A DNA stretch of 28,864 nt from Gammaproteobacteria bacterium (GTDB lineage: Bacteria; Pseudomonadota; Gammaproteobacteria; GCA-001735895): assembly GCA_050298595.1 (NCBI GenBank), contig JBNKUM010000025.1:1-28864 (forward strand). Reading direction: 5' to 3'. Positions 3,028-21,809 of the stretch are shown piece after piece. How positions within the stretch are numbered: position 1 is the stretch's first letter; each line of letters starts with the position of its first letter. The notes below the pieces were generated by a model. The model saw only the letters and a list, made by a program, of their open reading frames with translations, was not told the DNA's origin and ran no database searches. The position numbers and the translations under genes were made by a program.

Positions 3028-5352
3028 TTATGCTGGTTTTTTTAGACGATAAATAAAAACCCCGTCTGGGTGTTGAAATACAGTATCCATAAAGTTGCTG
3101 AATTTTTTTAAATTATTACTCGCGTATTTTTGACGCTCCAATGTTCCTACAAATACAAAAGTAATGTTGTATTTTTCAATCAAGGTACGTGTCAGTTCAA
3201 TATCGCCTGACCCATACAAAGCATCAATGTCCGGAATCCGTTTACTGGGTTCATCATAATTACCGCGCCATTGTAACTCATGACCGGCCCATCCAAGCAC
3301 TGTAGTAAGCCCGGTAAAAGTGGAAACCCGTGCAAAATCTGAATATTGTCCACCGGTAGCTTCGAGTACTACAGGATTTCCCTTCGCATTATTACGCAAC
3401 CATTCAATCCCTTCCCTATCCGCTGAATATCTATGGCGCAAATATGCTGAACCATCCAAGGTGGGCTGATTGGAGAAATGACTGGTTTTTATCATCACAG
3501 ACACAGAGGGATAAACCACTGAAGCTGCAATCAATAGTATCAGCTGCAGTAAACACGCAAGCTTTAAATTGCGATGGAACATCGAGTAATGAAATACCCA
3601 GTACATACCATAAATCCCAGCAATCCCCATTAAAAACCATGTGATGTAGAAAAACTTAAACACCGTATTCATGCGATCAAGAGGAGGATTAAATGAATCC
3701 TTTACATGCAGAAACTCACATCCGAAAACTAAAAGCCCAGCGGTAAGCAACAAGATTAAAATAAATACAGTTTCTGGTTTATCTATTTTTGCTGCCAATA
3801 AGAAAAAAATACAAACCACAAATAGTAGCGAGAGCGCAAATAAAACTGGCAGCGGATTTGTTTCAGAACCCAAAAAATAGATTTTTAAAATTACCAGTAA
3901 AATAATCGAGCTTAAAATCCCCAGAGTAATCACAGCAAGTAGCCGCCCAATTCCTTTTTTTATTGATGTTATTGGCTGAAGAAAAAACTTGAAAAGTTCC
4001 AAAATCCAGACAGGCAGTTGGCTAGCCCGCTGTGTGAGTAGCTCGACTGTGGCCGACGATTTTGTTTGTGCGGATTGCTTTTGAGATACAGATAAAATCG
4101 CAACAAACCAGGCGTGGTAACGTGCCATTACAAACGTCATAACCATAAAAGTGAATAATCCGAAAATCAACAAAAAATCACTCAGGCGAGTATTCTGCGT
4201 TGTCCAGGCAATCCCCCTGGCTTGACTATGAAAGTTCATGTAAAAAGGCAAATAGGGAACAATCATAAATATCAGCATCACTACCAGTACCTGACCCATA
4301 TTCTTCCAGGGATATGTTTTCCAACCTGTGCGCTGTCGATATTGTTGGAGAAATATACTTAGTATTGCAATAAAAAAAACAGAGGGCAGGTCCCAGCTGT
4401 TTATAAAACCTAGCGATCCGATGACGAGACCCCATAACGAAAATCGAGCCAATTTTTCTGGCGTTTTGATCGAAATATCATGAGTCGTAATCAAGAGATG
4501 ATTTAACCCCATACCCAGACCAATCATAATAAAAGGCACCGCCATCATATGCGGATGCATATCACCTAATAAGAAAGAGAAGAATGGAAATTCATTAATT
4601 GTATCTGGCACAATGCGAGAAGAGGCCCACCAATTTAAATCCCAGATCGACTTGATGTTTAAAAGCTGCTTGAACCCATCCAGATTGCCCAGCATAAAGA
4701 TGGCTACCCAGCCTCCAAATGCATATTTCAAACGCCGTGTCAGGTTATACAGCATGGTAAAAACGCCAATCCCGGAAAGCGCAAAAAGCATAGCAAGAGA
4801 TAAGTTAAATCCAACTGCAGGCGCTATCTGCGAAAGCTTTAGTAGTATGGCCATCAAAAAATAGCCAAAATAATAATAGCTGATTGAAAAATCGCCTGAC
4901 ATCCAGGGATCATAAGGCGGCAGTGAAGTTGCGCGGGAGATTGCATTTAAAAATGCCATCTCCATAAACTTTTCTGATCCTGCAATATCCGGGTTGTACA
5001 TACGGAAAAAAGCAAACAGTATAAATAGGAAAACAAAAAATAATTCAATAATCAGGATATATCTTTTTTGTTTTACGAGCAGACAGATGATTTCTTCTTT
5101 AGCTTTCATCCACAGCCAAAGTGAGAACCAAAAAACCAGGGTGATCGAGATAAGTATAGTTAGATTAGAAAAATGTAAAAATCCAGTTAACCATGTCAAT
5201 AAGCCGACGAGAAGCAATCCCAGTGGTTTAGAAAAGCCATATCCTCTATCTGGTAAAAAATTAAAAACTTTTATGCTAATTGGTAAAGCGATAACGCCAA
5301 AAATACTGATCAAAGCCCACCAAACAAAAATGTTAATCAAAAGGAAGTGCAC
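3028..5352 (-). CDS. DUF2298 / Chlor_Arch_YYY polytopic membrane protein (putative GT-C-type glycosyltransferase), copy 1
   Basis: 774 aa with many TM segments; EKFME, PPYDPW, YYYFG, INEFP, LGDMHPH, NSWD, RMNTVFKF, LGWAGHE; soluble C-terminal domain. Confidence 0.88.
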   Translation of the reverse strand: MHFLLINIFVWWALISIFGVIALPISIKVFNFLPDRGYGFSKPLGLLLVGLLTWLTGFLHFSNLTILISITLVFWFSLWLWMKAKEEIICLLVKQKRYILIIELFFVFLFILFAFFRMYNPDIAGSEKFMEMAFLNAISRATSLPPYDPWMSGDFSISYYYFGYFLMAILLKLSQIAPAVGFNLSLAMLFALSGIGVFTMLYNLTRRLKYAFGGWVAIFMLGNLDGFKQLLNIKSIWDLNWWASSRIVPDTINEFPFFSFLLGDMHPHMMAVPFIMIGLGMGLNHLLITTHDISIKTPEKLARFSLWGLVIGSLGFINSWDLPSVFFIAILSIFLQQYRQRTGWKTYPWKNMGQVLVVMLIFMIVPYLPFYMNFHSQARGIAWTTQNTRLSDFLLIFGLFTFMVMTFVMARYHAWFVAILSVSQKQSAQTKSSATVELLTQRASQLPVWILELFKFFLQPITSIKKGIGRLLAVITLGILSSIILLVILKIYFLGSETNPLPVLFALSLLFVVCIFFLLAAKIDKPETVFILILLLTAGLLVFGCEFLHVKDSFNPPLDRMNTVFKFFYITWFLMGIAGIYGMYWVFHYSMFHRNLKLACLLQLILLIAASVVYPSVSVMIKTSHFSNQPTLDGSAYLRHRYSADREGIEWLRNNAKGNPVVLEATGGQYSDFARVSTFTGLTTVLGWAGHELQWRGNYDEPSKRIPDIDALYGSGDIELTRTLIEKYNITFVFVGTLERQKYASNNLKKFSNFMDTVFQHPDGVFIYRLKKPA

Positions 5353-5382
5353 TATGCTACAAGTGATTTAGGATGCCTTAAT

Positions 5383-6717
5383 TTACACACCATGAACTCC
5401 AGTAATCATCTTCGCAATATTTTTTCCAATGCGTCTTCCCTCTCGAATAGCATAGTTAGTCCCTCGGTCCTCTGGATAAATTTGCGCCATTGAGCAAATA
5501 TGAAAGCCTTCTAAAGGGCCATCTTCTTGAGGAATGAGTTTGCTGTAATGTTTTTCGACTACAGGCTGTGACCAACGAGCTCGCCACAGGTGATATTTTT
5601 GTATCCATTTTCTATCGAACTCGGGGAACATTTTCTTTAAAAATGGAAATGCAAAATCGAGAAAATCATCCGCATTCATCGAGTAAAGTCGATCTGTGTG
5701 GGGCAGATATTTTGAAAGATAGACGATGTGACGGCCTCCATACGTCTCAGGTCGTTCAAAATTGGTGTGCTCAATGACACCGACAAAAGGGAAGCTAGGA
5801 TCATTAACGTTCAGCCAGTAGGTTTTGGAAAGAGAGCGGTCAAGCTCCAGCACCAGGCAGACATTACCGATGTATTGAATGCGCCTCAGGTCAGTCAGGT
5901 ACTGCTCAGGTGCCCAGCCCTCAATCAAGTCAGCTATCAGAGGCAGCGCCGTGGTGATGACAACACGGCTTGAGGAAAAGGCACCTTTCTCAGTCTCCAC
6001 CATCCAGCTATCGTCGATATTTTGTACCTTCGTTACCGGTGTATTCAGTTCGATACGCCCCCCCAATTCACGAATCTTATTTGCAAGCGATTCCGCAAGG
6101 GCTACAAAGCCTCCATTGAAGTATGCCAGGCGTTCTTCTCCACCTTTTCCGCGACTACCGCCTCGTAACTTTAGCTTGTTCCAGAACCAGACAGCGGAAA
6201 CTTCTTCAGCATAGGGACCAAACTTTCCTTTTAGTAATGGTTGCCATACAACACGATAAACATTTTCTCCGCCCAACTCTTTTAACCACTCGTGGGCAGT
6301 CTTGTTTTCGAGCAGCTTCCAGTCTTTCACGCGCCTCGCTCGTAAAGCCAAAAGGCCAAGACGTATGCGATCAAAAAAACTTAGCGGGGTAAAATTCAGC
6401 AAATCCCAGGGGGTGGAAAGCTTAAAAAAATTATTAGCGTAATAAACTCCAGTATTTGTAGAATGCACTTTAACATGGTGACTCAGGCCCAGCTCATCTA
6501 TCAGCCCCATGACCTCAAGGTCATTGGTAAACCAGTGATGATAGAAACGGTCGAGTTTCTCGCCGCCAACATCGAACGCAGCTGCAAGTCCACCGATTTC
6601 AGACTCGGCTTCGAGAACAGTAACGGTGATATTCTTTTTTAGTAATTCGTAAGCAGCCGTCAAGCCAGTAAAGCCACCACCTACAATCGTGACCTGTGAT
6701 TTATGTGCTTGTTTCAT
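5383..6717 (-). CDS. FAD-dependent oxidoreductase (amine oxidase/HemY-like superfamily, glycosylation-cluster type)
   Basis: GGGFTGL dinucleotide-binding motif, E...GGL, FYHH, YPEDRGTN. Start reassigned to MKQAHK (ATG at 6717), overlapping the upstream gene by 17 bp. Confidence 0.85.
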   Translation of the reverse strand: MKQAHKSQVTIVGGGFTGLTAAYELLKKNITVTVLEAESEIGGLAAAFDVGGEKLDRFYHHWFTNDLEVMGLIDELGLSHHVKVHSTNTGVYYANNFFKLSTPWDLLNFTPLSFFDRIRLGLLALRARRVKDWKLLENKTAHEWLKELGGENVYRVVWQPLLKGKFGPYAEEVSAVWFWNKLKLRGGSRGKGGEERLAYFNGGFVALAESLANKIRELGGRIELNTPVTKVQNIDDSWMVETEKGAFSSSRVVITTALPLIADLIEGWAPEQYLTDLRRIQYIGNVCLVLELDRSLSKTYWLNVNDPSFPFVGVIEHTNFERPETYGGRHIVYLSKYLPHTDRLYSMNADDFLDFAFPFLKKMFPEFDRKWIQKYHLWRARWSQPVVEKHYSKLIPQEDGPLEGFHICSMAQIYPEDRGTNYAIREGRRIGKNIAKMITGVHGV

Positions 6718-7699
6718 TATAAATCGCCTTAAGCTTCTGCTTCTGTTTGATAGGATTGAACATAAGGTAAAGCCCTCCCGCAATCGATGGGGGGAGCCAC
6801 AGTACGGCATGTACCAGAAACGCGAATGCAGCTGAACCAGCAGCAGCATTTCCAAGCCCAGTCATCGCCTGGGCTGTAAAGTAGTCGAAAGTTCCAACAT
6901 ATCCTGGAGTGCTGGGTATCACTGTCGCGAGCGTCCCAACAGACAGGGCAAGCCACGCTGCAAGATGATTGGAAATCGAAGGAAGAGAAAGAGCTACTAG
7001 CCAAAATACAAATCCTTCTGCTATCCAGGCGAGCATTGACCAGAGAATCAATCTAAGCATTGTGTGACCCTTCGACGTATGCTCCAGGGCCGCAAAGATT
7101 TTGTGAAATTCAGCGAGGGTTTTATTCCCGAATTTTGGCAAAAACCTTACGAAAAATTGGCCCAACCAAAATGCCATGGGCTTAAAAATAGATGGAAATA
7201 GAAGGAGGAAAAGGATGGCCAGGCCCGCCACGATAAGAAAGCCGCCACCGACGCCAACAAACCTGGAGGACTCCATGCCGAAGTAAGTGAGCGCAAGCCC
7301 CAGGAAGGATACTACCATCAGTAGATCGAGTAGTCTTTCAACAAAAAGCGAGGTGACGGAAGTTGCGGCGCTGATTCCGAGTCTTCGATTAAAGCCAAAA
7401 GCACGTAAGATGTCACCTGCTCTAAATGGCAAAACATTATTAACTGCAACACTTGCCATTAGTGGGCCTACGCAGTTTTTAAAACGCAAGTCTGGATTTT
7501 CATGGGTCAACATGAGGCGCCAACGCTCAATCCTGCATGAATAGCCCACAAAAAAAACAATAATGGCAAGCCCTAGTAAAGCTATGTTGGCTTCACTAAA
7601 TGCATGCTTTATTTCATCAAGGCTGAGTTGCCTGAAAATAAGCCAGAGAAATATTCCTGCCAGTATGAAGCCAAATGTAAGGCGAATTATTCTTTTCAT
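6701..7699 (-). CDS. UPF0104 / lysylphosphatidylglycerol synthase TM-domain protein (putative flippase)
   Basis: RxxRW, NNVLPFRAGDxxR, ERLLD, PSTPGYVGTFD motifs; multiple TM helices. Confidence 0.88.
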   Translation of the reverse strand: MKRIIRLTFGFILAGIFLWLIFRQLSLDEIKHAFSEANIALLGLAIIVFFVGYSCRIERWRLMLTHENPDLRFKNCVGPLMASVAVNNVLPFRAGDILRAFGFNRRLGISAATSVTSLFVERLLDLLMVVSFLGLALTYFGMESSRFVGVGGGFLIVAGLAILFLLLFPSIFKPMAFWLGQFFVRFLPKFGNKTLAEFHKIFAALEHTSKGHTMLRLILWSMLAWIAEGFVFWLVALSLPSISNHLAAWLALSVGTLATVIPSTPGYVGTFDYFTAQAMTGLGNAAAGSAAFAFLVHAVLWLPPSIAGGLYLMFNPIKQKQKLKAIYNETST

Positions 7700-8709
7700 A
7701 CTTTCGTTCTGTTAACGACAGGGCTACGGGAAAGGGCCGGAGCTTCATCGACAAATCCAATATATTCCTGGACTACATACAGCGGTCTTTTTTTGATTTC
7801 GTTGTAGATGCGGCCTACGTATTCACCAAGTATCCCGACACTGATAAGCTGAATACCACCGATAAACAGAATGGCGATCATTAAAGCAGTCCAACCTTCA
7901 ACCCAGATACTCGTAAAGATGCGCAGATAGAGCGCGTAAACAATACCGATGAGTGAAAGGGCTGCGGACACCATCCCAAGTCCAACGGACAACTGAAGAG
8001 GTTTTGTCGAAAAGGAGAGTATGCCGTCTGTCGCAAAGCGGAGCATTTTTCTTAAGGGGTATTTGGTCTCCCCGGCAAAACGTTCAGCTCTCCTATATGG
8101 CAAAGCTGTTTGCTTAAAACCTACCCAACTAACCATGCCGCGTACAAAACGATCACGTTCAGGCATAGCACGCAAAGTGTCAACTACTGCGCGACCCATC
8201 AAGCGGAAGTCGCCTGTATCCAATGGCATCTGGACATCAGAAAGCCTATTAAGTAGCCTGTAGAACCCGCGAGCAGTCGCTAACTTGAAAGCTGACTCCC
8301 CTGGTCGTTCAGTACGAGTTCCATAGATGACATCAAATCCTTCCCGCCACTTTGCTACCATTTTGTGAATGACTTCTGGAGGATCTTGAAGATCAGCATC
8401 GATCAATACAACTGCGTCACCATTAGCAGCATCAATTCCAGCAGTTACGGCAATTTGGTGGCCAAAATTTCGTGCGAATCCAATAATTCTGACTCGATTG
8501 TCTTCTGCCGCAAAAACTTTCAGATGATGGCGGGTACGGTCGTGACTTCCATCGTCGATAAATATCAATTCAACTTCTAGATTATCAAGCTCCTGACAAA
8601 ATATCTTTAACCGCTTGATAGTTTCTTCTATGACTTCTTCTTCGTTATAACAGGGAATCACTACTGAAAGAAGTGAATTATTTACACTTGTTTCTACTGC
8701 TGTACTCAT
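7696..8709 (-). CDS. GT2 polyprenol-phosphate glycosyltransferase (GtrB/YkoT/DPM1-like)
   Basis: VVIPCYNEE, DDGSHD, RNFGHQxA, DADLQDPP, GDFRLM, two C-terminal TM helices, GEYVGRIY...RPLY; ATGA overlap with the next gene. Confidence 0.92.
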   Translation of the reverse strand: MSTAVETSVNNSLLSVVIPCYNEEEVIEETIKRLKIFCQELDNLEVELIFIDDGSHDRTRHHLKVFAAEDNRVRIIGFARNFGHQIAVTAGIDAANGDAVVLIDADLQDPPEVIHKMVAKWREGFDVIYGTRTERPGESAFKLATARGFYRLLNRLSDVQMPLDTGDFRLMGRAVVDTLRAMPERDRFVRGMVSWVGFKQTALPYRRAERFAGETKYPLRKMLRFATDGILSFSTKPLQLSVGLGMVSAALSLIGIVYALYLRIFTSIWVEGWTALMIAILFIGGIQLISVGILGEYVGRIYNEIKKRPLYVVQEYIGFVDEAPALSRSPVVNRTKV

Positions 8710-13122: not shown

Positions 13123-15180
13123 GTGTATTTTATATATCTTGCTTCTACTCTACTGTTTATCTGGATAACTGTTGCAGGGGTTACTGTGATCAGCAACCGC
13201 TATCTTTCTGATATCGCAGTAGCGCGCTCTGCCGGCTTGTTAATTGTGGTTCTTGTTCTGTTTTTTATCGAACATTTAATTGGCCTGGGAAAAATCTTCT
13301 GGATGTTACCCATAACAGTGATTTTAGGCCTATGGATGATTTGGAATGTCAATACTAAAGAACAGGGTAAAATATTTTGGCAATCAGAGCTGGTATTTGT
13401 ATTTGCGTTTTTATATGGATTATTCTGGCGCTACTCATTCCCTTCAATATCGCCTTCCTCCGAAAAAATCACAGATCTTTTTTTCATCAGCAACTATTAT
13501 CCCGGCGATACTTTACCACCGCTGGATAACTGGAACCCGCCGCATTTATTTGATTACTACTACGCATTTCAACATTATGCGGCAGCTCTGCTTGGGAGGG
13601 TGTTCAATTTAGAAATTGGTACCTGTTATAACCTTGCTTTTGCATTAATTGCGGCTTTACCGCTGACACTGGCCTGGTCGATGAGTGGATACTACATTCA
13701 AAAAAAGGCGCTACGTTTTTTGCTTGTCTGCACTCTTGCCTTTGGTGGTACTGGGTTTTCTCCAATATTATATTTTACTAACCAGGCGTCTGATACACCC
13801 AGTACACAAAACAAAAACGAATGGGTACAGCATGGCCGCGATATTGAAAACATATCGCGTCAAAATATCATTTCCAGCGCTAGATATATTGGCGGCGAGC
13901 TTGATTCAACTTCTCAAAAGGACAGGCCAGTCAGTAAATCAACAAATAAAGGAGTAACGCCTGAAAGCAAAACACCGCTAGTTCTTCCCTCTGAAAATTA
14001 TGGATATCAGTTTTTTCTGGGTGATTACCACCCTCCAACTGGAGGTTTTTTAATCCTTTTTCTGGCAATAGCCCTGATTGCAAGTGCAGAGAACAGCAGG
14101 CAATCGCGTGCAAGCCAGGCCTTGCTTGCCCTGTGTGTACCGGTGATGTTGATCACCAATACCTGGACATTTCCTTTACTCGTTTTATTAATCTTAGGCT
14201 GGTTAGCATTCAGGTTGATGTACAAACTTCCTGTTGACTGGCTTGCTCTATTTGCTGGAGGGGTCGCGGGAACATTTCTAATTTATCCATTTTTGATTGG
14301 TTTTACTTCTAATTCACTGCCGACGCCAATTAAATTCGTTTCTGAAAACTTGCATACACCTATCTCTCGGTTCATTGGTTTGCATTGGCCCGTATTACTT
14401 TTGCTTAGTTTTGGTTTTTTTGAGAAAAAATACCGACGCTTTAGCTTAACACTTTCGATAACTTGGCTTTCACTTTTGTTTATTTCAGAGTTTGTCTATA
14501 TCGACGACCCGACGGGAGCGCAATATGAACGTACGAATTCTGTCATGAAATGGTGGGGGTGGATTCAAACAGGCGTCATTGCAACGCTTGGAGCAGTCTG
14601 TTTAGGCTCTTCAAGAAAATGGATTCGCTGGGCCACAGTGGTGGTTTTTATCATTATCAACATCGCAGCGATAGATCTCGCTAAATATTGGTATTACTCT
14701 GGCAAGCAATACCAGGGCAAGTTAGCAGGACACCATTGGTATACACAAACCGCCACAAACCGGATGATGTTTGAGTTCTTGAAAGAAGCACCAAAGGGTG
14801 TAGTACTTGAAAGAATTTTAGATAACTCTTTCAGTAATACCAGCATATATAGTATTTTTAATAATAAGCCTGTGTTATTGGGCTGGCCTTTGCACCTTAA
14901 CACCTGGCATGGAGATGTTCCACGCATCTGGATTTTAAAAGATGAAATCGAGAGTTTCTACAGAGGTGAAATGGATGGTTCTCTGGTATGGCTGATGAGC
15001 CATAACGTTGAATATATAGTATTTGGACCAAGCGACAACAATTCGAATTTTGACATAATCAATAATCAAATAAAATCCATGTATTCCTGGCAGGAATATA
15101 ATCATTCACGGCATCGTCATACCGGTATCTGGGTGAAAATATCTACTGCTTCGAACCTCAGCAATCGAGTTTATCAATGA
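13123..15180 (+). CDS. DUF2298 / YYY polytopic membrane protein, divergent copy 2
   Basis: EKITD, PPLDNW, DYYY, LGDYHPP, NTWT, RTNSVMKWW, LGWPLHL occur in the same order as the motifs of copy 1. Confidence 0.8.
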   Translation: MYFIYLASTLLFIWITVAGVTVISNRYLSDIAVARSAGLLIVVLVLFFIEHLIGLGKIFWMLPITVILGLWMIWNVNTKEQGKIFWQSELVFVFAFLYGLFWRYSFPSISPSSEKITDLFFISNYYPGDTLPPLDNWNPPHLFDYYYAFQHYAAALLGRVFNLEIGTCYNLAFALIAALPLTLAWSMSGYYIQKKALRFLLVCTLAFGGTGFSPILYFTNQASDTPSTQNKNEWVQHGRDIENISRQNIISSARYIGGELDSTSQKDRPVSKSTNKGVTPESKTPLVLPSENYGYQFFLGDYHPPTGGFLILFLAIALIASAENSRQSRASQALLALCVPVMLITNTWTFPLLVLLILGWLAFRLMYKLPVDWLALFAGGVAGTFLIYPFLIGFTSNSLPTPIKFVSENLHTPISRFIGLHWPVLLLLSFGFFEKKYRRFSLTLSITWLSLLFISEFVYIDDPTGAQYERTNSVMKWWGWIQTGVIATLGAVCLGSSRKWIRWATVVVFIIINIAAIDLAKYWYYSGKQYQGKLAGHHWYTQTATNRMMFEFLKEAPKGVVLERILDNSFSNTSIYSIFNNKPVLLGWPLHLNTWHGDVPRIWILKDEIESFYRGEMDGSLVWLMSHNVEYIVFGPSDNNSNFDIINNQIKSMYSWQEYNHSRHRHTGIWVKISTASNLSNRVYQ

Positions 15181-15692
15181 ATAATAAAAGCGATGAAAAT
15201 CGCACTACTGTTGTGGACGACTCAATTATTGGTACGTCTGACACTATGTTAGATTCAACTGCAATAATGAAGCAGACGTGATCCCTCTGTATATTTAAAC
15301 GAACACTTAATGTTTTAAATGGCGCAGGCATTAAGTTTGAATTTATCTGCGTGAATGATGGCTCCTCAGATACAACGTTGCATCTACTTCGCGAATATGC
15401 GGCAAAAGAACCTGGGATTAAAGTAGTATCTTTCTCGCTTAATTTTGTAAGGAAACCGCGATGACAGCCGCACTGGATTTCGCCACTGGAGACGCAGTCA
15501 TCCCAATGGATGTGGATCTTCAAGATCCTCCTGAACTGATTATCGAGATGCTGGCGAAATGGCGGGAGGGTTATGATGTGGTTTATGCGGCAAGATCCAC
15601 ACGGAATTCAGATAGTTTTTTTAAACGAAAAACAGCGCTCTGGTTTTACTTTATCTTCAACAAAATTCTCAATAATAACGCGGGTCTAACAG
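15177..15692 (+). pseudogene. gtrB: GtrB-like GT2 glycosyltransferase, frameshifted, C-terminal half deleted
   Basis: ATG overlaps the YYY stop (ATGA). Fragments NNEADVIP / FEFICVNDGSSDTT...FSLNF / AMTAALDFATGDAVIPMDVDLQDPPE are separated by frameshifts; similarity ends at FNKI. Confidence 0.88.
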
Positions 15693-16096
15693 ATGACCAC
15701 AAAAAATCTGCTTTGGCAGCTTTTTTACTTTGCTGTTGTCGGCGTTGCTGCGACAATCACAAATTATGTCACTGCCGTAGTCTTTCACGAGTATTTTTAT
15801 TTCAGCCTCTACATTGCTCAGTTAGTCGGTTATTGTTTTGCTGTTGCGATTTCATTGTTTGGCCATAGCAAACTTACTTTTAAAACATCTCTAAGCCGTA
15901 AGGTCTTTATAAGGTTTGTTACAGTTTCACTAGCTACCTTATTGCTAAGTGAATTATTACTGTTTTTTTGGAAATCTTACTTGCGCTGCCCAATCGTATA
16001 TTTCTGCTTGTCGTAGTAATGACGATTCCCGTACTGACTTTTGTGCTCAACAAAATATGGGTATTCCAGCAAGGCAAACAAGAATGTGAAATATAG
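15693..16096 (+). pseudogene. gtrA: GtrA-family flippase with a one-base frameshift in a T7 run
   Basis: QLFYFAVVGVAAT..., HSKLTF, RF. Adding one T at 15963-15969 restores ...LTFVLNKIWVF and a stop at 16096. Confidence 0.85.
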
Positions 16097-16230
16097 AAAT
16101 CTGAAAGGGGCAGGCTAAAGTTTAAAATACTATAAATGGATGTCACAATTAAGTGCCATTTGGTAAACGACCTGATTTGACTGAGCTTAATGTGTTAAGT
16201 GACTATGTCTTACTCACGATATATGCCTAC

Positions 16231-16928
16231 TTCAGTGAAGATATCATTGAGATTTGTTTTACCGGACATGAGCATATCGATGAGATGGAATTGATCCATA
16301 TGAATAGACGGGTTTATGACCCGATTGAAGGACGGTTCTTTAGTCCAGATACGATTGTGCAGGCTCCGAAAGATCCGCAGGGGGTGTGGCTTCTGTTGCT
16401 GGTGGTGGTAAGTTTAAGAATGGAGCATTTAATGGGGCATTTGCTTATTTAATCACTCCGTCAGGGGGCGGTAGAGCATGGAACGAAACTGAAGAGCAAG
16501 AAGGGTTGAGCGAAGCGGAAAAATCAGCGAAATACAAAAGGGATTTAAAAGCTATTAATGAAGGATTGGATGCGATTAGAAATACTACTGATCTTAATAT
16601 TCCATGCAGAGTGATAACTGTTGATGCCTCTGATAATGATGGAAATTTGGCGGGTGTAAAGTGTGCTCTGTTTGAGTGTGATCCTGGAGTATATGTTTCA
16701 AAACAATATTTGCAGACAGAAAGGGATCCAAGTGTAATTTTGTTAACTGCTTATCATGAAACACTTCATTTCAATGATCTTCTAATCACAAACTACACTA
16801 TTGATAATTTAAGTTCTTATCGCCACACAGAGATCTATCGGCTAGAGGATCAGTTAAGTTGGGGGGCTTTACCGGGAACTAGGGAGAGGAAAGTATATGA
16901 AGAATTTATGCGGCTACAACATAGATAG
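16231..16928 (+). pseudogene. rhs: Orphan Rhs module: partial Rhs-associated core, Gly/Ala linker and C-terminal HEXXH putative toxin domain
   Basis: FTGHEHIDEMELIHMNRRVYDPIEGRFFSPD..VQAP..PQ, then a deletion/frameshift at about 16382 into GVASVAGGGKFKNGA. The C-terminal domain has HETLH; the NPxxxxDPxG segment is missing. Confidence 0.82.
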
Positions 16929-16932
16929 AATT

Positions 16933-17319
16933 ATGAAGCTCTTATTAGTAACTGTTTTAATTATTATTAGTATTTATTTTTCTGATCCAAAGGTTAGCGT
17001 TGACCATCCCCTGAAAGAGGAGGAGAGAACTAAATTTACTTTGATGACGTTCTCAGCAACTATGGAGAAAATTAAAGAGGATTTTGGTTATTACCCAAAT
17101 ACATCAGATGGATTCAAAGTGATTTACGGAAATTTGGATGGAGATATGAAGTGGAATGGTCCGTATTTGCTTAGAAAAGCAGAGATTGTTGATGCGTGGG
17201 GGCAGCAGATTATTTATCGATCACCATCAGTTTGTAGTGTAGGTGATTATGAGCTTTATTCAATTGGTAGGAATGGTATTGACGAATGCCTTAAAGGGGA
17301 CGATATATCAATTAAATGA
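16933..17319 (+). CDS. Stand-alone GspG (T2SS major pseudopilin) globular-domain protein; putative Rhs immunity protein
   Basis: GYYPxTxxG, WNGPYL, DAWG..IIY.SP, YELYSIGxNG...GDDI. Hydrophobic N-terminus without the G|FTLIE prepilin motif; ATG 4 bp after the toxin stop. Confidence 0.75.
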   Translation: MKLLLVTVLIIISIYFSDPKVSVDHPLKEEERTKFTLMTFSATMEKIKEDFGYYPNTSDGFKVIYGNLDGDMKWNGPYLLRKAEIVDAWGQQIIYRSPSVCSVGDYELYSIGRNGIDECLKGDDISIK

Positions 17320-17539
17320 TTTTGGGGGCAGGCCTTGCAATTCCTAAAGAATTATTAAATATATTGAATAAAAGAATAATAATAGGGGCAGACCACGTTT
17401 TCTGAAGGGAGACAAAGGCAATTGTACTTGTAAAGCCCCACGGAAAATAAAAGGGACGGTGGGATTAAAAAAATAAACAATTCCGAATGTGGAGTTTTCT
17501 AGATTGTTTGAATGAGAAGCAAAAGGAGAAAGAAATACC

Positions 17540-18063
17540 ATGGAAAGCAGGCTTTATTTAACGGGTTATCCGTATCACATTGTTCAAAGAGACAATCATC
17601 AAGAAGCCTGTTTTTTAGAGCCTGAGAATTACCAGTTTTACCTGGAGCTTTGGCAGGAGTGTTAGATACGGTATTGTACCAGAGTACATGCATATTGCCT
17701 GATGACGAACCATGTACAATTCTAGTGATACCGGAGAAGAAAGATTCAATATCGAATGCGTCCAAAGTGGTCGGGAGTCGGTATGCACAGTATATGAACA
17801 AGAAGTATAAGCGAACGGGTACCTCTGAGAGGGGCGGCACTGCTCAAGTCTGTTTCAGTCTGAGAAATATTTGCTGACGTGTTACCAGTATATCGAGCTA
17901 CACCCGGTTAGGACTGGTATGATGGAATCAGCGGAGGAATATAAATGGACAAGTTATGGTGTGAATGCCTTGAGTGATAGAGGTTGGACCCTGTCCCATG
18001 AATAGTATTTGAAATTAGGTGATGACAAAGAAAATCGATGCTCTCGGTATCGAAAGTGGATAA
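17540..18063 (+). mobile_element. Y1/HuH transposase pseudogene (IS200-like / REP-associated tyrosine transposase type)
   Basis: AGGAG upstream, then MESRLYLTGYPYHIVQR.N...CF, HAYCLMTNHVQ (degenerate HuH), RYAQYMNKKYKRTGT, L*EGR, YIELHPVR.GM...EYKWTSY, with several stops and frameshifts. Confidence 0.88.
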
Positions 18064-18744
18064 ATTTAAATCTCTCTGTTCTCATTTATTCTGTTGATCC
18101 TGGTGTTGAAACAGCAATAAAAAAACATTAAATATTTACGCTATAAATTTTAAAGAAACTACAACTAATTTGTTAACCAAAGATGGGAATTCAGTTTTAG
18201 AATGCAGGATTGTGGTTGGTGATTACGGTTAGGGCATAATTTCAGACCATCTTGCGAAACCCCATGGGCAGTTACCTTTTGAAAGGCCAGTCAAAATACC
18301 GCTATCATACAGCTTACTAAATTGTCTGCGCTCAGGCTGTAGAAAATGACTTCTCCCAGGTTATTTCTTGCTGCCGGTAAACTATGCTTAATACCAAATG
18401 GAACTGACTTAAGAGCAAAGCGAAATCGACTAGTCGGTGAGCGATATGTTGCATCACGGATCATACGCAATATTGAAAAGCTCTGGCGATACGGAGATGG
18501 AGTGTCTAGTACTGCAAAGGATCGTACAGTCCAATATGGATGACCTTATAACCCTGGTGGCTAATACAAGGCTTGATAGAGGCTTGTTTGCTTTTACTGA
18601 TGATATGATTGGGATTTAGCTGTTTGCCGAGAGCATCATGCGGTTAAGGATTGTCTGTGTTCAAAGCTTGAATTTTCTGTAGTCTGGATAGAGGAAATAA
18701 TTTACTAATTCATCTTTCTATATAATTATTCATAGACCCAGGGA

Positions 18745-19011
18745 ATGAATAAAAATAATATAAGGTTACAAGCAATATATCTGCGACTTAGCAATTCCGT
18801 TAGTGAATATCGGGTGCTCCGGTGTTCGTCTTAAATCCGCAGATCAATTTAAAACCAATTTATATAAAGGTATGCAGAAATCAGCTAGAGAGCAGTATAG
18901 AAAAATGTATAACTCATACAGCTAGAGGAATGCATTCAAAGAACTCAAGAGTCTTACGGTGAATATTATGAAAAGAGAGAAAACCTATCAAATTTATTAT
19001 TCAAAGACTAA
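18745..19011 (+). pseudogene. Frameshifted small lipoprotein-like cassette gene
   Basis: Fragments LAIPLVNIGCSG...LYKGMQ...EQ and EECIQRTQESYGEYYEKRE* lie in different frames, just upstream of an attC-like site. Confidence 0.45.
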
Positions 19012-19055
19012 TATAAATTTATCCAAATTCAGGCAACTTGTTTTGATAAAAAATG

Positions 19056-19135
19056 CGCTAACAATTATTTCATGTCGCTCATAAAATCCGTCGGTTGTGA
19101 CGCTTTTCTGCGTGCTCCATATTTAGGCGTTAGGA
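19056..19135 (+). other. attC-like integron cassette recombination site
   Basis: CGCTAAC ... GGC-GTTAGGA ends, 80 bp, with an internal imperfect hairpin (CATAAAA/TTTTCTG, CGTC/GACG); the next gene's RBS follows immediately. Confidence 0.62.
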
Positions 19136-19156
19136 CTGTTTATCAGGAGACTGATT

Positions 19157-19789
19157 GTGCTTGATAGCTATTCATTACAAGTAAGGGTGAGCATGCTACC
19201 TCTATCTATATCCAGAACTTTGCCAGAGGCATTCAAGGAATGGTTTTTCACTGAGCATACAATAGATCATGGAGCTCAAATTAAAGATTGCCAGCTATGC
19301 AAGCAAGAGCACTTAAGGTATTGCTTCGAAATAAAGAATGTTCATACAGGCCACACTTTAATGGTGGGGCCCCAATGTATATTGAAGTTTAAACTTCAAG
19401 TTTTCGATAATGGGAAGTTGCTGGACGAAGTTGGAACAAAGAAGAAGCTCGATTCTATAATGAAGCAAATGAGACTAGAGTCATGTATTAAGGCATTGGA
19501 TAGAGTGGCTGAGGCTGAAAATAATGTCATATTGAATAATTCTCTCGCATACTATAAGAAGAATAAATACTTATCACCAAAACAGGCCTTTGTAGTTTTA
19601 TCGCGCCTGGAAAAACACAATATTGATTACCACCCCTCATTTTTTAAAGTCAACCTGAAAAAAGACAGGTATAAAAACGATTTGCGGCTAATGGAAGAAA
19701 GTAGTGTTCAGGCAATCTGGCCGGCTTTAGCCCCTAGTCAAAGGAAGCTTGCTGAGAAATATGGACACAAAGCACCAACCAGCACATAA
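19157..19789 (+). CDS. Hypothetical cassette-like protein with putative N-terminal Zn-binding motif
   Basis: AGGAG plus GTG start; CQLC...VGPQC; basic helical C-terminus; 210 aa, intact. Confidence 0.75.
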   Translation: MLDSYSLQVRVSMLPLSISRTLPEAFKEWFFTEHTIDHGAQIKDCQLCKQEHLRYCFEIKNVHTGHTLMVGPQCILKFKLQVFDNGKLLDEVGTKKKLDSIMKQMRLESCIKALDRVAEAENNVILNNSLAYYKKNKYLSPKQAFVVLSRLEKHNIDYHPSFFKVNLKKDRYKNDLRLMEESSVQAIWPALAPSQRKLAEKYGHKAPTST

Positions 19790-19872
19790 AAAGTTTCAAC
19801 GAAATAACTTTCAAATATCGCTCCAGGTTTGCTATTAAAAGTAGGCGTCTCATTGCTACCTGATATAAAACA

Positions 19873-20130
19873 ATGGCCTACTCATATAAAAATAGTTTTC
19901 AGGAAAAGGCATTTTTCCGCTCATGTATGCCTTTATATTATTTATTCCTATTAGAAACATCTTTCCCTCTTCTAACAAGTTAATTCAAATATATATTTAC
20001 AAGAAGATCATCAAGTACTGGAAATAGGTCTAGAGCCCGGGAATTTCAGTACACATATCGAAAAGAAGTTGAAAATGGGGGGTTAGTATTACTCGATATT
20101 CAACAGGAAATGCTAGACTTCGCAAATGAA
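19873..20130 (+). pseudogene. Class I SAM-dependent methyltransferase remnant
   Basis: Across frameshifts: KGIF/PLMYAFILFIPIRNIF, EDHQVLEIGLEPGNFS (degenerate motif I), LVLLDIQQEMLDFA. Confidence 0.65.
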
Positions 20131-21461: not shown

Positions 21462-21809
21462 ATCCTAGATTCCGCAGTTGACCGCTCATATTAATGGGTA
21501 ACCTTCATTTTCGTAAACGATCTTAGTCAGTTTGTATTTTCACGATCCTATCTTCCATGCATTCGCGAAATAACAGCATCCATGCTGAAAACCCAAAAGG
21601 TGAACCCCACTAGGAGCTGAATTGAAGGTTTGAGGCGGCGTATCTCTGCGTTGCCTATAGGGACATAGGTAAGGGGTGTGAGCAGGACGCGGAAGCTTTG
21701 CCTATAGGGACATAGGTAAGGGGCGTGAGCAGGACGCGGAAGCCTAGTAACTCCTTGATCTACACCACCACAAACGCACTACAACTCGTCCAGCTGCGGA
21801 TTCCAGGAT
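21462..21809. mobile_element. Non-coding MITE-like element with imperfect terminal inverted repeats
   Basis: ATCCTAGATTCCGCAGTTG ... CAGCTGCGGATTCCAGGAT, 16/19 complementary; no ORF; contains nested palindromes. Confidence 0.6.
21651..21744 (+). repeat. Two tandem 47-bp copies with a CCTAT-N6-ATAGG hairpin
   Basis: Units start at 21651 and 21698 and are 45/47 identical. Confidence 0.92.

Follow-up and report, generated by a model that had tools for sequence, protein, structure and literature searches.

The stretch of DNA analyzed here (the window) comprises 28,864 nucleotides and represents positions 1 to 28,864 of contig JBNKUM010000025.1 (assembly GCA_050298595.1) from a gammaproteobacterium of the GTDB lineage GCA-001735895. 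On its forward strand, three elements follow one another between positions 16258 and 17319: a remnant of an Rhs-associated core, an open reading frame (ORF) for a putative zinc-binding toxin tip of an Rhs protein, and a gene whose product carries the globular domain of GspG, a major pseudopilin of type II secretion systems (T2SS). An earlier interpretation made from the letters alone (hereafter the sequence-only reading) had described this region as an orphan Rhs tip with a pseudopilin domain in the position usually taken by the immunity protein.

The Rhs core is reduced to a remnant of about 40 residues, FTGHEHIDEMELIHMNRRVYDPIEGRFFSPDTIVQAPKDPQ (16258-16380, plus strand, frame +1). On the ORF 16153-16452, the model TIGR03696 (Rhs_assc_core) scored 31.5 bits (E 1.8e-7), marginally missing its cut-off of 32.5, and tblastn with the Rhs proteins of three related loci described below (L002, L003 and L004) matched positions 16258-16380 over 29-35 residues (E 1e-5 to 6.5e-8). 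No Rhs repeats were found upstream of the remnant in the window; based on Pfam, its upstream neighbours are a glycosyltransferase fragment and a GtrA-like fragment. Downstream, the flanks of the tblastn matches define a junction scar (16381-16409, plus strand), at which the frame changes from +1 to +3. The matches run up to residue 39 and continue from residue 211 of the L002 protein (40 and 194, respectively, for L003), which leaves about 29 nt in the window where the relatives carry about 155-170 codons. In the relatives, the segment deleted here encodes the stretch NxYSYVxNNPL...DPSGY (with the variant NxYSYVLNNPL) and a Gly-rich pre-toxin linker. The demarcation motif DPxG(L/Y), found as DPSGY in L002, L003 and L004, is absent from the window copy because it falls within the deleted segment, and its loss identifies the window copy as a decayed member of the Rhs C-terminal modules. 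Since the reading frames of core remnant and tip do not join, the intervening codons are deleted and no Rhs repeats lie upstream, the toxin of the window is a disconnected orphan. The orphan Rhs tip described in the sequence-only reading is confirmed, but the Rhs homology begins near 16250 and not at 16231, and the disconnection from the carrier by frameshift plus deletion had gone unnoticed.

The ORF of the tip (16386-16928) remains uninterrupted over 180 codons in frame +3 and ends with a TAG stop at 16926-16928. Based on the local composition, a frame of this length would stay open by chance with a probability of about 6e-7; the five remaining frames contain 8-23 stops. According to the alignment with four homologous tips (those of L001-L004) and an AlphaFold2 (AF2) model, the tip proper (16410-16928, plus strand) consists of the end of the linker (GGKFxNG) and a predicted minimal zincin-like domain of about 150 residues. 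The motif HETLH, already seen in the sequence-only reading, lies at 16755-16769 (plus strand) and provides the putative zinc-binding and catalytic residues H118, E119 and H122 (tip residues are counted from 16404). These three residues are invariant in 5/5 tips, as are Ile144 and His141 (16824-16826, plus strand, within RHxxIY), the latter being a candidate third zinc ligand. In addition, an aligned Cys pair is common to 4/5 tips, and the sequence YHETLHFND is identical in the tips of L002 and the window. Because both HExxH and the downstream His are kept in all five homologous tips, the motif is not a fortuitous match.

Comparison of the tip sequence with Pfam, NCBIfam and PDB sequences revealed no family match, and none of the five tips (0/5) matched the Pfam models Tox-MPTase1-5, even at E<=10. 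A profile built from the five tips found nothing credible among PDB sequences, while matches of the tip to OXA beta-lactamases in the PDB (E 0.017-1) were taken as chance. A word-index protein search with the tip gave no match among longer proteins, the five-tip profile matched only a single protein (P0151), and tblastn against plasmids returned no match. The Atlas look-alike of the tip was weak (0.79) and belongs to a cluster in which 15% of the members carry Tox-MPTase4. The AF2 model, computed from five sequences (pLDDT 69.9), shows an N-terminal helix, a three-stranded sheet, the HExxH helix (109-128), a helix with His141 (135-152) and further helices. When it was compared with known structures using Foldseek, no match reached E<=0.001; the top matches were minigluzincins (selecase, E 0.18, the best value, with probability 0.84; jannalysin), and other weak matches included a zincin-like protein (3e11) as well as deuterolysin-type and lethal-factor-type metallopeptidases. 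Taken together, the model points to a new minimal zincin, comparable in kind to the Tox-MPTase1-5 tips and presumably acting as a peptidase.

It is also conceivable that the tip is toxic without being a peptidase, acting through another zinc-dependent or a non-catalytic activity, for example as a lipid or glycan hydrolase or as a binding toxin. The missing family assignment and the weakness of the fold matches speak for such an activity. We nevertheless consider it unlikely: in the predicted structure the HExxH helix follows a small sheet and the downstream His sits on the next helix, which is the layout of zincins, the top fold matches, weak as they are, are nearly all metallopeptidases, and small zincin tips on RHS proteins form an established class according to the available part of the study that introduced Tox-MPTase1-5 (PMC3482391).

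The third element, the gene for the GspG-like protein (16897-17319, plus strand), was assigned as a GspG-fold immunity gene based on PF08334, Foldseek, synteny and the predicted complex. Depending on whether ATG 16897 or ATG 16933 serves as the start, its product has 140 or 128 amino acids (aa), respectively. The downstream start lies 4 nt past the TAG of the tip, as the sequence-only reading had it; the alternative ATG 16897, however, is preceded at a distance of 7 nt by a strong Shine-Dalgarno-like sequence, GGGAGAGG (16882-16889, plus strand), and would create an overlap of 32 nt with the tip. A frame of 140 codons remains open by chance with a probability of about 1.4e-5. A scan for promoters and terminators yielded 5 matches where 6.0 were expected, and hence no enrichment.

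The GspG homology of the product is well supported. The Pfam model T2SSG (PF08334) matched with 48.1 bits (E 1.4e-12, cut-off 21) and covers residues 43-129 of the 140-aa form (17023-17283, plus strand), so that the globular domain is genuine. Among PDB sequences, GspG/XcpT (2kep) was matched at E 8.7e-5, and PulG could be aligned as well. An AF2 model based on 43 relatives reached a pLDDT of 94.8, and all 15 Foldseek matches at E<=1e-3 were major pseudopilins (EpsG, XcpT, EHEC GspG, PulG and related proteins), with EpsG (4lw9) as the best one (E 2.8e-5). Towards the C-terminus, a span from Cys113 to Cys131 (PSVC ... NGIDEC) followed by GDDI (17233-17289, plus strand) forms the signature of a 'DEC' subfamily. 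Both cysteines (numbered on the 140-aa form) are invariant in the 13 nearest relatives and likely form a periplasmic disulfide. Thus, the GspG motifs, the terminal GDDI and the added Cys pair proposed earlier are all present.

By contrast, the features that a pseudopilin needs at its N-terminus differ from those of full-length PulG (5wda). The N-terminal hydrophobic segment, MKLLLVTVLIIISIYF (16933-16980, plus strand), delimited by the alignment with PulG and by AF2, is a putative signal anchor or signal peptide. In this alignment, Lys occupies the E+5 position and Ile the G-1 position, and the N_methyl family found no match in the protein; the G-1/F+1/E+5 site is absent, in agreement with the sequence-only reading. 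The NCBIfam equivalog model for GspG (TIGR01710) gave 44.9 bits and did not reach its cut-off of 88.85. In the AF2 model, a hydrophobic helix (4-29) is separated from the helix of the domain (41-63) by a non-helical, Pro-containing linker (30-40). T2SS families were also absent from the other 24 ORFs of the window that were scanned, as expected from the earlier claim that no further T2SS genes are present. Because the G-1 and E+5 residues are missing, the score stays below the equivalog cut-off, the helix is broken and no gsp genes lie nearby, the protein is not a pseudopilin in function.

In order to place this arrangement in a wider context, genomes were scanned with the pattern NG[IV]DEC[MLG]xGD, derived from a 13-sequence alignment. 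Of 11 pattern matches, five were confirmed as loci (L001-L005). At 4/5 loci (L001-L004), a homologous HExxH tip is directly followed by a homologous prepilin-less GspG-like gene, the HExxH being invariant, and the pairing is thus conserved. Relative to the stop of the tip, the GspG-like gene starts at -20/-8 nt in Microbulbifer (L001), at about +65 nt in Pseudoalteromonas luteoviolacea (L002, a frameshifted copy), at +10 nt in Thalassotalea litorea (L003) and at +18 nt in a metagenome-assembled genome of the Rhodanobacteraceae (L004); at L005, the GspG-like gene is reduced to its final 19 residues. The tips of L001-L004 share 43, 42, 33 and 17% identity with the window tip, respectively, and the GspG-like proteins of the related loci 32-51%. 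No gsp genes were seen beside the GspG-like copies in L001-L004. A full-length RHS-repeat carrier of the homologous tip was found at one locus (L004), where the HExxH tip forms the end of a protein that spans at least 1929 aa and contains FG-GAP, TcdB_toxin_midN and RHS_repeat domains; at the remaining three loci, the tips are orphans or sit on short proteins. Within the 5.8 kb viewed near the L004 carrier, no genes of a type VI secretion system (T6SS) were present.

Comparison across tip types turned out to be informative for the function of the downstream gene. A GspG-like gene follows the HExxH tips in 4/4 cases, whereas an ankyrin-repeat gene follows lipase-like tips in 2/2 cases. L001 itself contains another orphan that shares the Gly-rich linker but carries a lipase-like tip followed by an ankyrin-repeat protein, and the same lipase/ankyrin pair occurs in L003. 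Since the downstream gene changes with the type of the tip and not with the Rhs carrier, it shows immunity-type behaviour. The lipase-like tips (L001, 6582-8214; L003, 3005-5136, minus strand) contain the motif GHSLGG and match Lipase_3 weakly (E 2.4e-4), and the ankyrin-repeat proteins encoded after them have a hydrophobic N-terminus. The Gly-rich linkers of the lipase and HExxH orphans of L001 are near-identical, as expected of recombination cassettes. In L002, L003 and L001 (e.g. L002, 1257-1880), the region from DPSGY to the toxin domain is a Gly-rich hydrophobic stretch of about 150-170 residues in which GGxFxxG(F/A) motifs recur. This stretch, for which Pfam gave no match, may be a pre-toxin segment that acts on membranes or one that serves translocation.

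Relatives of the GspG-like protein are numerous. When 1.84 billion representatives were scanned with HMMER, 1459 matched at E<=1e-3, the best non-self match being 44% identical. Among the best 150 of these relatives, a prepilin-like motif was found in 14/150, the window protein not being among them, while 110/150 are prepilin-less with an N-terminal hydrophobic segment and 24 additionally have a C-terminal transmembrane-like segment. T2SSG (PF08334) was matched by 43/43 relatives tested. The nearest relatives share the C-terminal signature YSxGxNG(I/V)DECxxGDD(I/V), and in a FastTree tree all 21 proteins with the 'DEC' motif fall into one set of 27 (SH-like support 96). A word-index protein search retrieved only the window's own protein, and the Atlas look-alikes belong to T2SSG clusters, the nearest of which are automatically named 'type II secretion system protein G'. 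Using tblastn against plasmids, 158 records with <60% identity were obtained; among the 40 matches listed, 23 are annotated as gspG and 17 have no listed feature, and the single record inspected proved to hold a genuine T2SS-like operon. Among the T2SSG-domain proteins matched (P0004, P0021, P0030, P0070, P0075, P0085), some distant ones carry the domain in two to five tandem copies or fused to TonB_C or LRR domains, and others have a C-terminal transmembrane anchor. Judged from such architectures, the T2SSG domain seems to be used more widely than in pseudopili.

The pairing of tip and GspG-like protein was further supported by structure prediction of their complex, using tip residues 30-174 (5-row alignment), residues 33-140 of the GspG-like head (43-row alignment) and a zinc ion. 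The complex score was 0.85 in 3/3 runs, while the best of three controls reached 0.02. In the calibration of this score, the mark was reached by 116/157 solved complexes and by 2/215 mismatched pairs, from which our runs differ in the use of own alignments and the inclusion of zinc. At least 79% of the contacts were common to the runs, and the partner pLDDT was at least 88. On the toxin side, the predicted interface comprises residues 118, 119 and 122 (H-E-H) and 145-169, and on the immunity side residues 36-58 (alpha1C) and 87-95 (NGPYLLRK). The T2SSG domain thereby contains the predicted toxin-binding surface, formed by the alpha1C helix (43-58) and the WNGPYLLRK loop (86-95). Within the immunity domain, the mean fraction of the top residue was 0.35 at the predicted interface and 0.48 in the rest; this higher variability is in line with a specificity surface. 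Conserved exceptions across the 43 relatives are G88 (0.88), P89 (0.91) and Y90 (0.88). The models thus support active-site occlusion, with the GspG-like head predicted to cover the HExxH of the toxin.

Based on these results, we consider it probable that the locus represents an orphaned toxin-immunity module from a family of Rhs polymorphic toxins that had not been classified before, composed of a periplasmic zincin and a pseudopilin-fold immunity protein. The proposal that a pseudopilin fold was co-opted as an exported immunity protein thus gains in silico support from synteny, the tracking of the tip type, the export signals and cysteines, and the predicted complex. Both homologies, the conserved pairing, the tip-specific co-occurrence, the loss of the prepilin site and the decay of the window toxin are borne out by the comparisons above. 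In intact relatives, the carrier is a large Rhs/YD-repeat protein whose C-terminus comprises DPSGY, the Gly-rich linker and a putative zincin-type domain of about 150 residues with HExxH, the downstream His and a Cys pair, and it would bring this small zincin to the periplasm of the target cell. We infer the periplasmic site of action because the immunity protein appears to be exported and bears cysteines, and a Cys pair is present in the tip. The immunity protein would be a GspG head that no longer has a site for the prepilin peptidase or an unbroken polymerisation helix, and its plain hydrophobic N-terminus would anchor it in, or export it across, the inner membrane. In the periplasm, it would bind the incoming toxin 1:1 and thereby shield the producer and its kin, with the alpha1C helix and the W-x-G-P-Y-L loop predicted to cover the HExxH cleft and so close off the active site. 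Zinc-peptidase activity, periplasmic location and disulfides are deduced from sequence features and models, and the physical binding from structure prediction.

Several points weigh against this interpretation. As now encoded, the toxin of the window is undeployable. The comparison covers only five loci, all of them found through one C-terminal pattern, and among these the L004 partner is too divergent for Pfam and L005 retains just 19 residues. The tip lies outside every family model searched, including Pfam Tox-MPTase, its structural model is of moderate quality (pLDDT 69.9 with five sequences) and its fold matches to zincins are weak, and binding is predicted. The wider prepilin-less T2SSG family, some members of which are tandem or fused, may serve other roles. 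In the window itself, the weapon half is disarmed, whereas the immunity half alone is likely functional. Most likely, the immunity gene, which is intact, has been kept as orphan immunity against toxin-deploying neighbours, or it is a recent relic.

A special case of the immunity interpretation is that the GspG-like protein acts as a decoy: the zincin would cleave pseudopilins or type IV pilins and thereby disable the T2SS or pili, and the immunity protein would be an uncleavable, non-polymerising mimic of the substrate. Here, the immunity protein would be truly homologous to the proposed target, and the predicted interface indeed uses the family-conserved W-x-G-P-Y-L loop and reaches the catalytic H-E-H. 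On the other hand, nothing in the data identifies the substrate, and most of the predicted interface, namely the alpha1C positions, is variable and off the GspG consensus. Moreover, the immunity protein of a polymorphic toxin generally bears no relation to what the toxin attacks, which also counts against a decoy, and we regard it as quite improbable. Equally doubtful is the extended version in which a pilin-specific toxin is met by a target-derived, disulfide-locked GspG mimic and the prepilin-less T2SSG family as a whole represents widespread periplasmic anti-toxin or inhibitor modules. A tie to the export of cellulases is speculation.

Another possibility is that the GspG-like protein does not confer immunity at all but serves as a secretion accessory, linking the Rhs protein to a T2SS-like export route. 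The available part of a preprint (10.1101/2025.05.08.652813) links 180 Rhs toxins of Xanthomonas and 56 of Ralstonia to gspG, and the L004 carrier belongs to the FG-GAP/TcdB_midN type, T6SS genes being absent from the 5.8 kb viewed there. However, in the one Ralstonia megaplasmid checked, that of Ralstonia solanacearum OE1-1 (L006), the arrangement is another one: gspG is canonical and forms the first gene of a T2SS-like operon, leading gspG-F-E next to Rhs remnants. In this plasmid (103421-121675), gspG, an F-family gene, an E-type ATPase, a TPR protein and minor pseudopilins adjoin a fragment annotated as 'RHS repeat protein' and a stretch of about 5.7 kb in which no gene is listed. This arrangement probably underlies the published association of Rhs and gspG. 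In the window, the prepilin site required for entry into a pseudopilus is absent, and a GspG-like gene follows the tip even in orphans that have no carrier (the window and L001). The replacement of the GspG-like gene by an ankyrin gene upon a change of the tip, as well as the predicted covering of the catalytic site, likewise argue against a secretion accessory, which is therefore very unlikely.

Finally, the two genes could be chance neighbours, a degenerate pseudopilin relic beside an Rhs fragment in a zone of gene decay with many broken genes (GT2 and GtrA fragments at 15461-16016, a truncated GH10 gene at 2476-2898, shifted ORFs at 17540-18005), but this is extremely improbable because four further genera carry the pairing in divergent form, at levels of identity (17-43% for the tips, 32-51% for the GspG-like proteins) that show the loci not to be recent copies of one mobile segment, and because the GspG-like frame has stayed open behind a strong Shine-Dalgarno sequence.

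Just downstream of the immunity gene, three short ORFs with shifting frames (17540-18005), beginning ...YPYHIVQRDNHQEACF, may represent a frameshifted mobile-element gene. A resemblance of these ORFs to a REP-associated tyrosine transposase could not be confirmed, as Pfam (E<=1) detected no transposase family in the three fragments. The region 16001-20000 has a GC content of 0.37-0.40, compared to 0.45-0.54 further to the right, with a strongly positive GC skew (0.24-0.27) at 16-18 kb. This low-GC region spans the Rhs module, the broken ORFs and a 210-aa ORF (19157-19789) with a sub-threshold Pfam match only, and may be an acquired islet. Upstream, a DUF2298 protein of 685 aa (113 bits) is followed by the GT2 fragment and the GtrA fragment in overlapping frames (13123-16016). 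An intact DUF2298 gene (774 aa, 335 bits) lies together with genes for an LPG_synthase_TM protein and an intact GT2 on the minus strand at 3028-8709, and the former region has the appearance of a further copy of such a membrane glycosylation cluster that has partly decayed. This copy and the truncated GH10 gene point to many broken genes in the genome.

Two tandem repeats were observed elsewhere in the window. Within the ORF of a GH6 cellulase (17-2326, 769 aa), positions 379-617 contain fourteen overlapping register copies of the 12-nt tandem unit GGTCCCAACACA and variants thereof, which encode a linker rich in Pro, Thr, Gln and Val. The second is a 47-nt tandem duplication (21648-21741, copies 96% identical) between the genes of a LysR-type regulator and an aldose 1-epimerase. 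No tRNA genes or Rfam families were found in the window.

While Rhs toxin-immunity modules as such are known, both halves of the present one are unclassified. The tip resembles the zincin-like RHS tips Tox-MPTase1-5 (Zhang et al. 2012, PMC3482391) in its C-terminal HExxH domain of about the size of Wss1 or a minimal zincin, in being borne by RHS proteins and in the small gene that follows, and differs from them in that 0/5 tips match the Pfam models. In the available part of that paper, the table gives no immunity family for Tox-MPTase1-5, and the words pilin, pseudopilin and GspG do not occur in that part of the text. Antibacterial HExxH toxins of the T6SS that act in the periplasm and have immunity partners are represented by VgrG2b C-ter/PA0261 and by Tpe1/Tpi1 of Acinetobacter baylyi (Wood et al. 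2019, PMC6899460). According to the accessible text of that study, the Tpe-Tpi immunity proteins are small, encoded downstream, directly toxin-binding, periplasmic and dependent on Cys/DsbA, and reach the periplasm through a signal peptide, a lipobox or a transmembrane helix at the N-terminus. By analogy, this makes Tpe-Tpi the closest functional precedent, the likeness being functional only: its carrier is a VgrG spike and not an Rhs protein, and VgrG2b is not among the Foldseek matches listed for the tip.

The GspG-like protein, in turn, shares with GspG of the T2SS a homologous globular domain with the motifs W-GPYL, DxWG, Y-Y and YS-G-(N/D)G and the terminal acidic D-I (Foldseek TM about 0.55-0.7, target-normalised). 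Unlike GspG, it lacks the prepilin-peptidase site with E+5, has a Pro-linker after the N-terminal helix and an added Cys pair, stays under the NCBIfam equivalog cut-off, and occupies the immunity slot of a toxin module and not a place in a gsp operon. The Rhs families described as 'associated with gspG' in Xanthomonas and Ralstonia, which the available part of the preprint (10.1101/2025.05.08.652813) reads as T2SS secretion, likewise have an Rhs toxin locus adjoining a GspG-domain gene. Theirs follow the N-terminal Rhs family, whereas the one described here follows the type of the tip and is prepilin-less. The literature searched holds neither a pseudopilin-fold immunity protein nor a pairing of an HExxH tip with a GspG-like protein, so the impression of the sequence-only reading that the pairing is undescribed still stands. 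As far as the searched literature shows, this would be the first T2SS pseudopilin domain re-used as an immunity protein.

These findings provide a small and defined pair for structural work, in which the head of a pilin is predicted to plug the cleft of a zincin, and raise the question whether the pilin family itself is the target of the toxin. They also bear on annotation. Because such genes match T2SSG, as did all relatives tested, and their clusters are automatically named after T2SS protein G, a stand-alone 'gspG' beside an Rhs gene may mean immunity rather than T2SS-dependent secretion.

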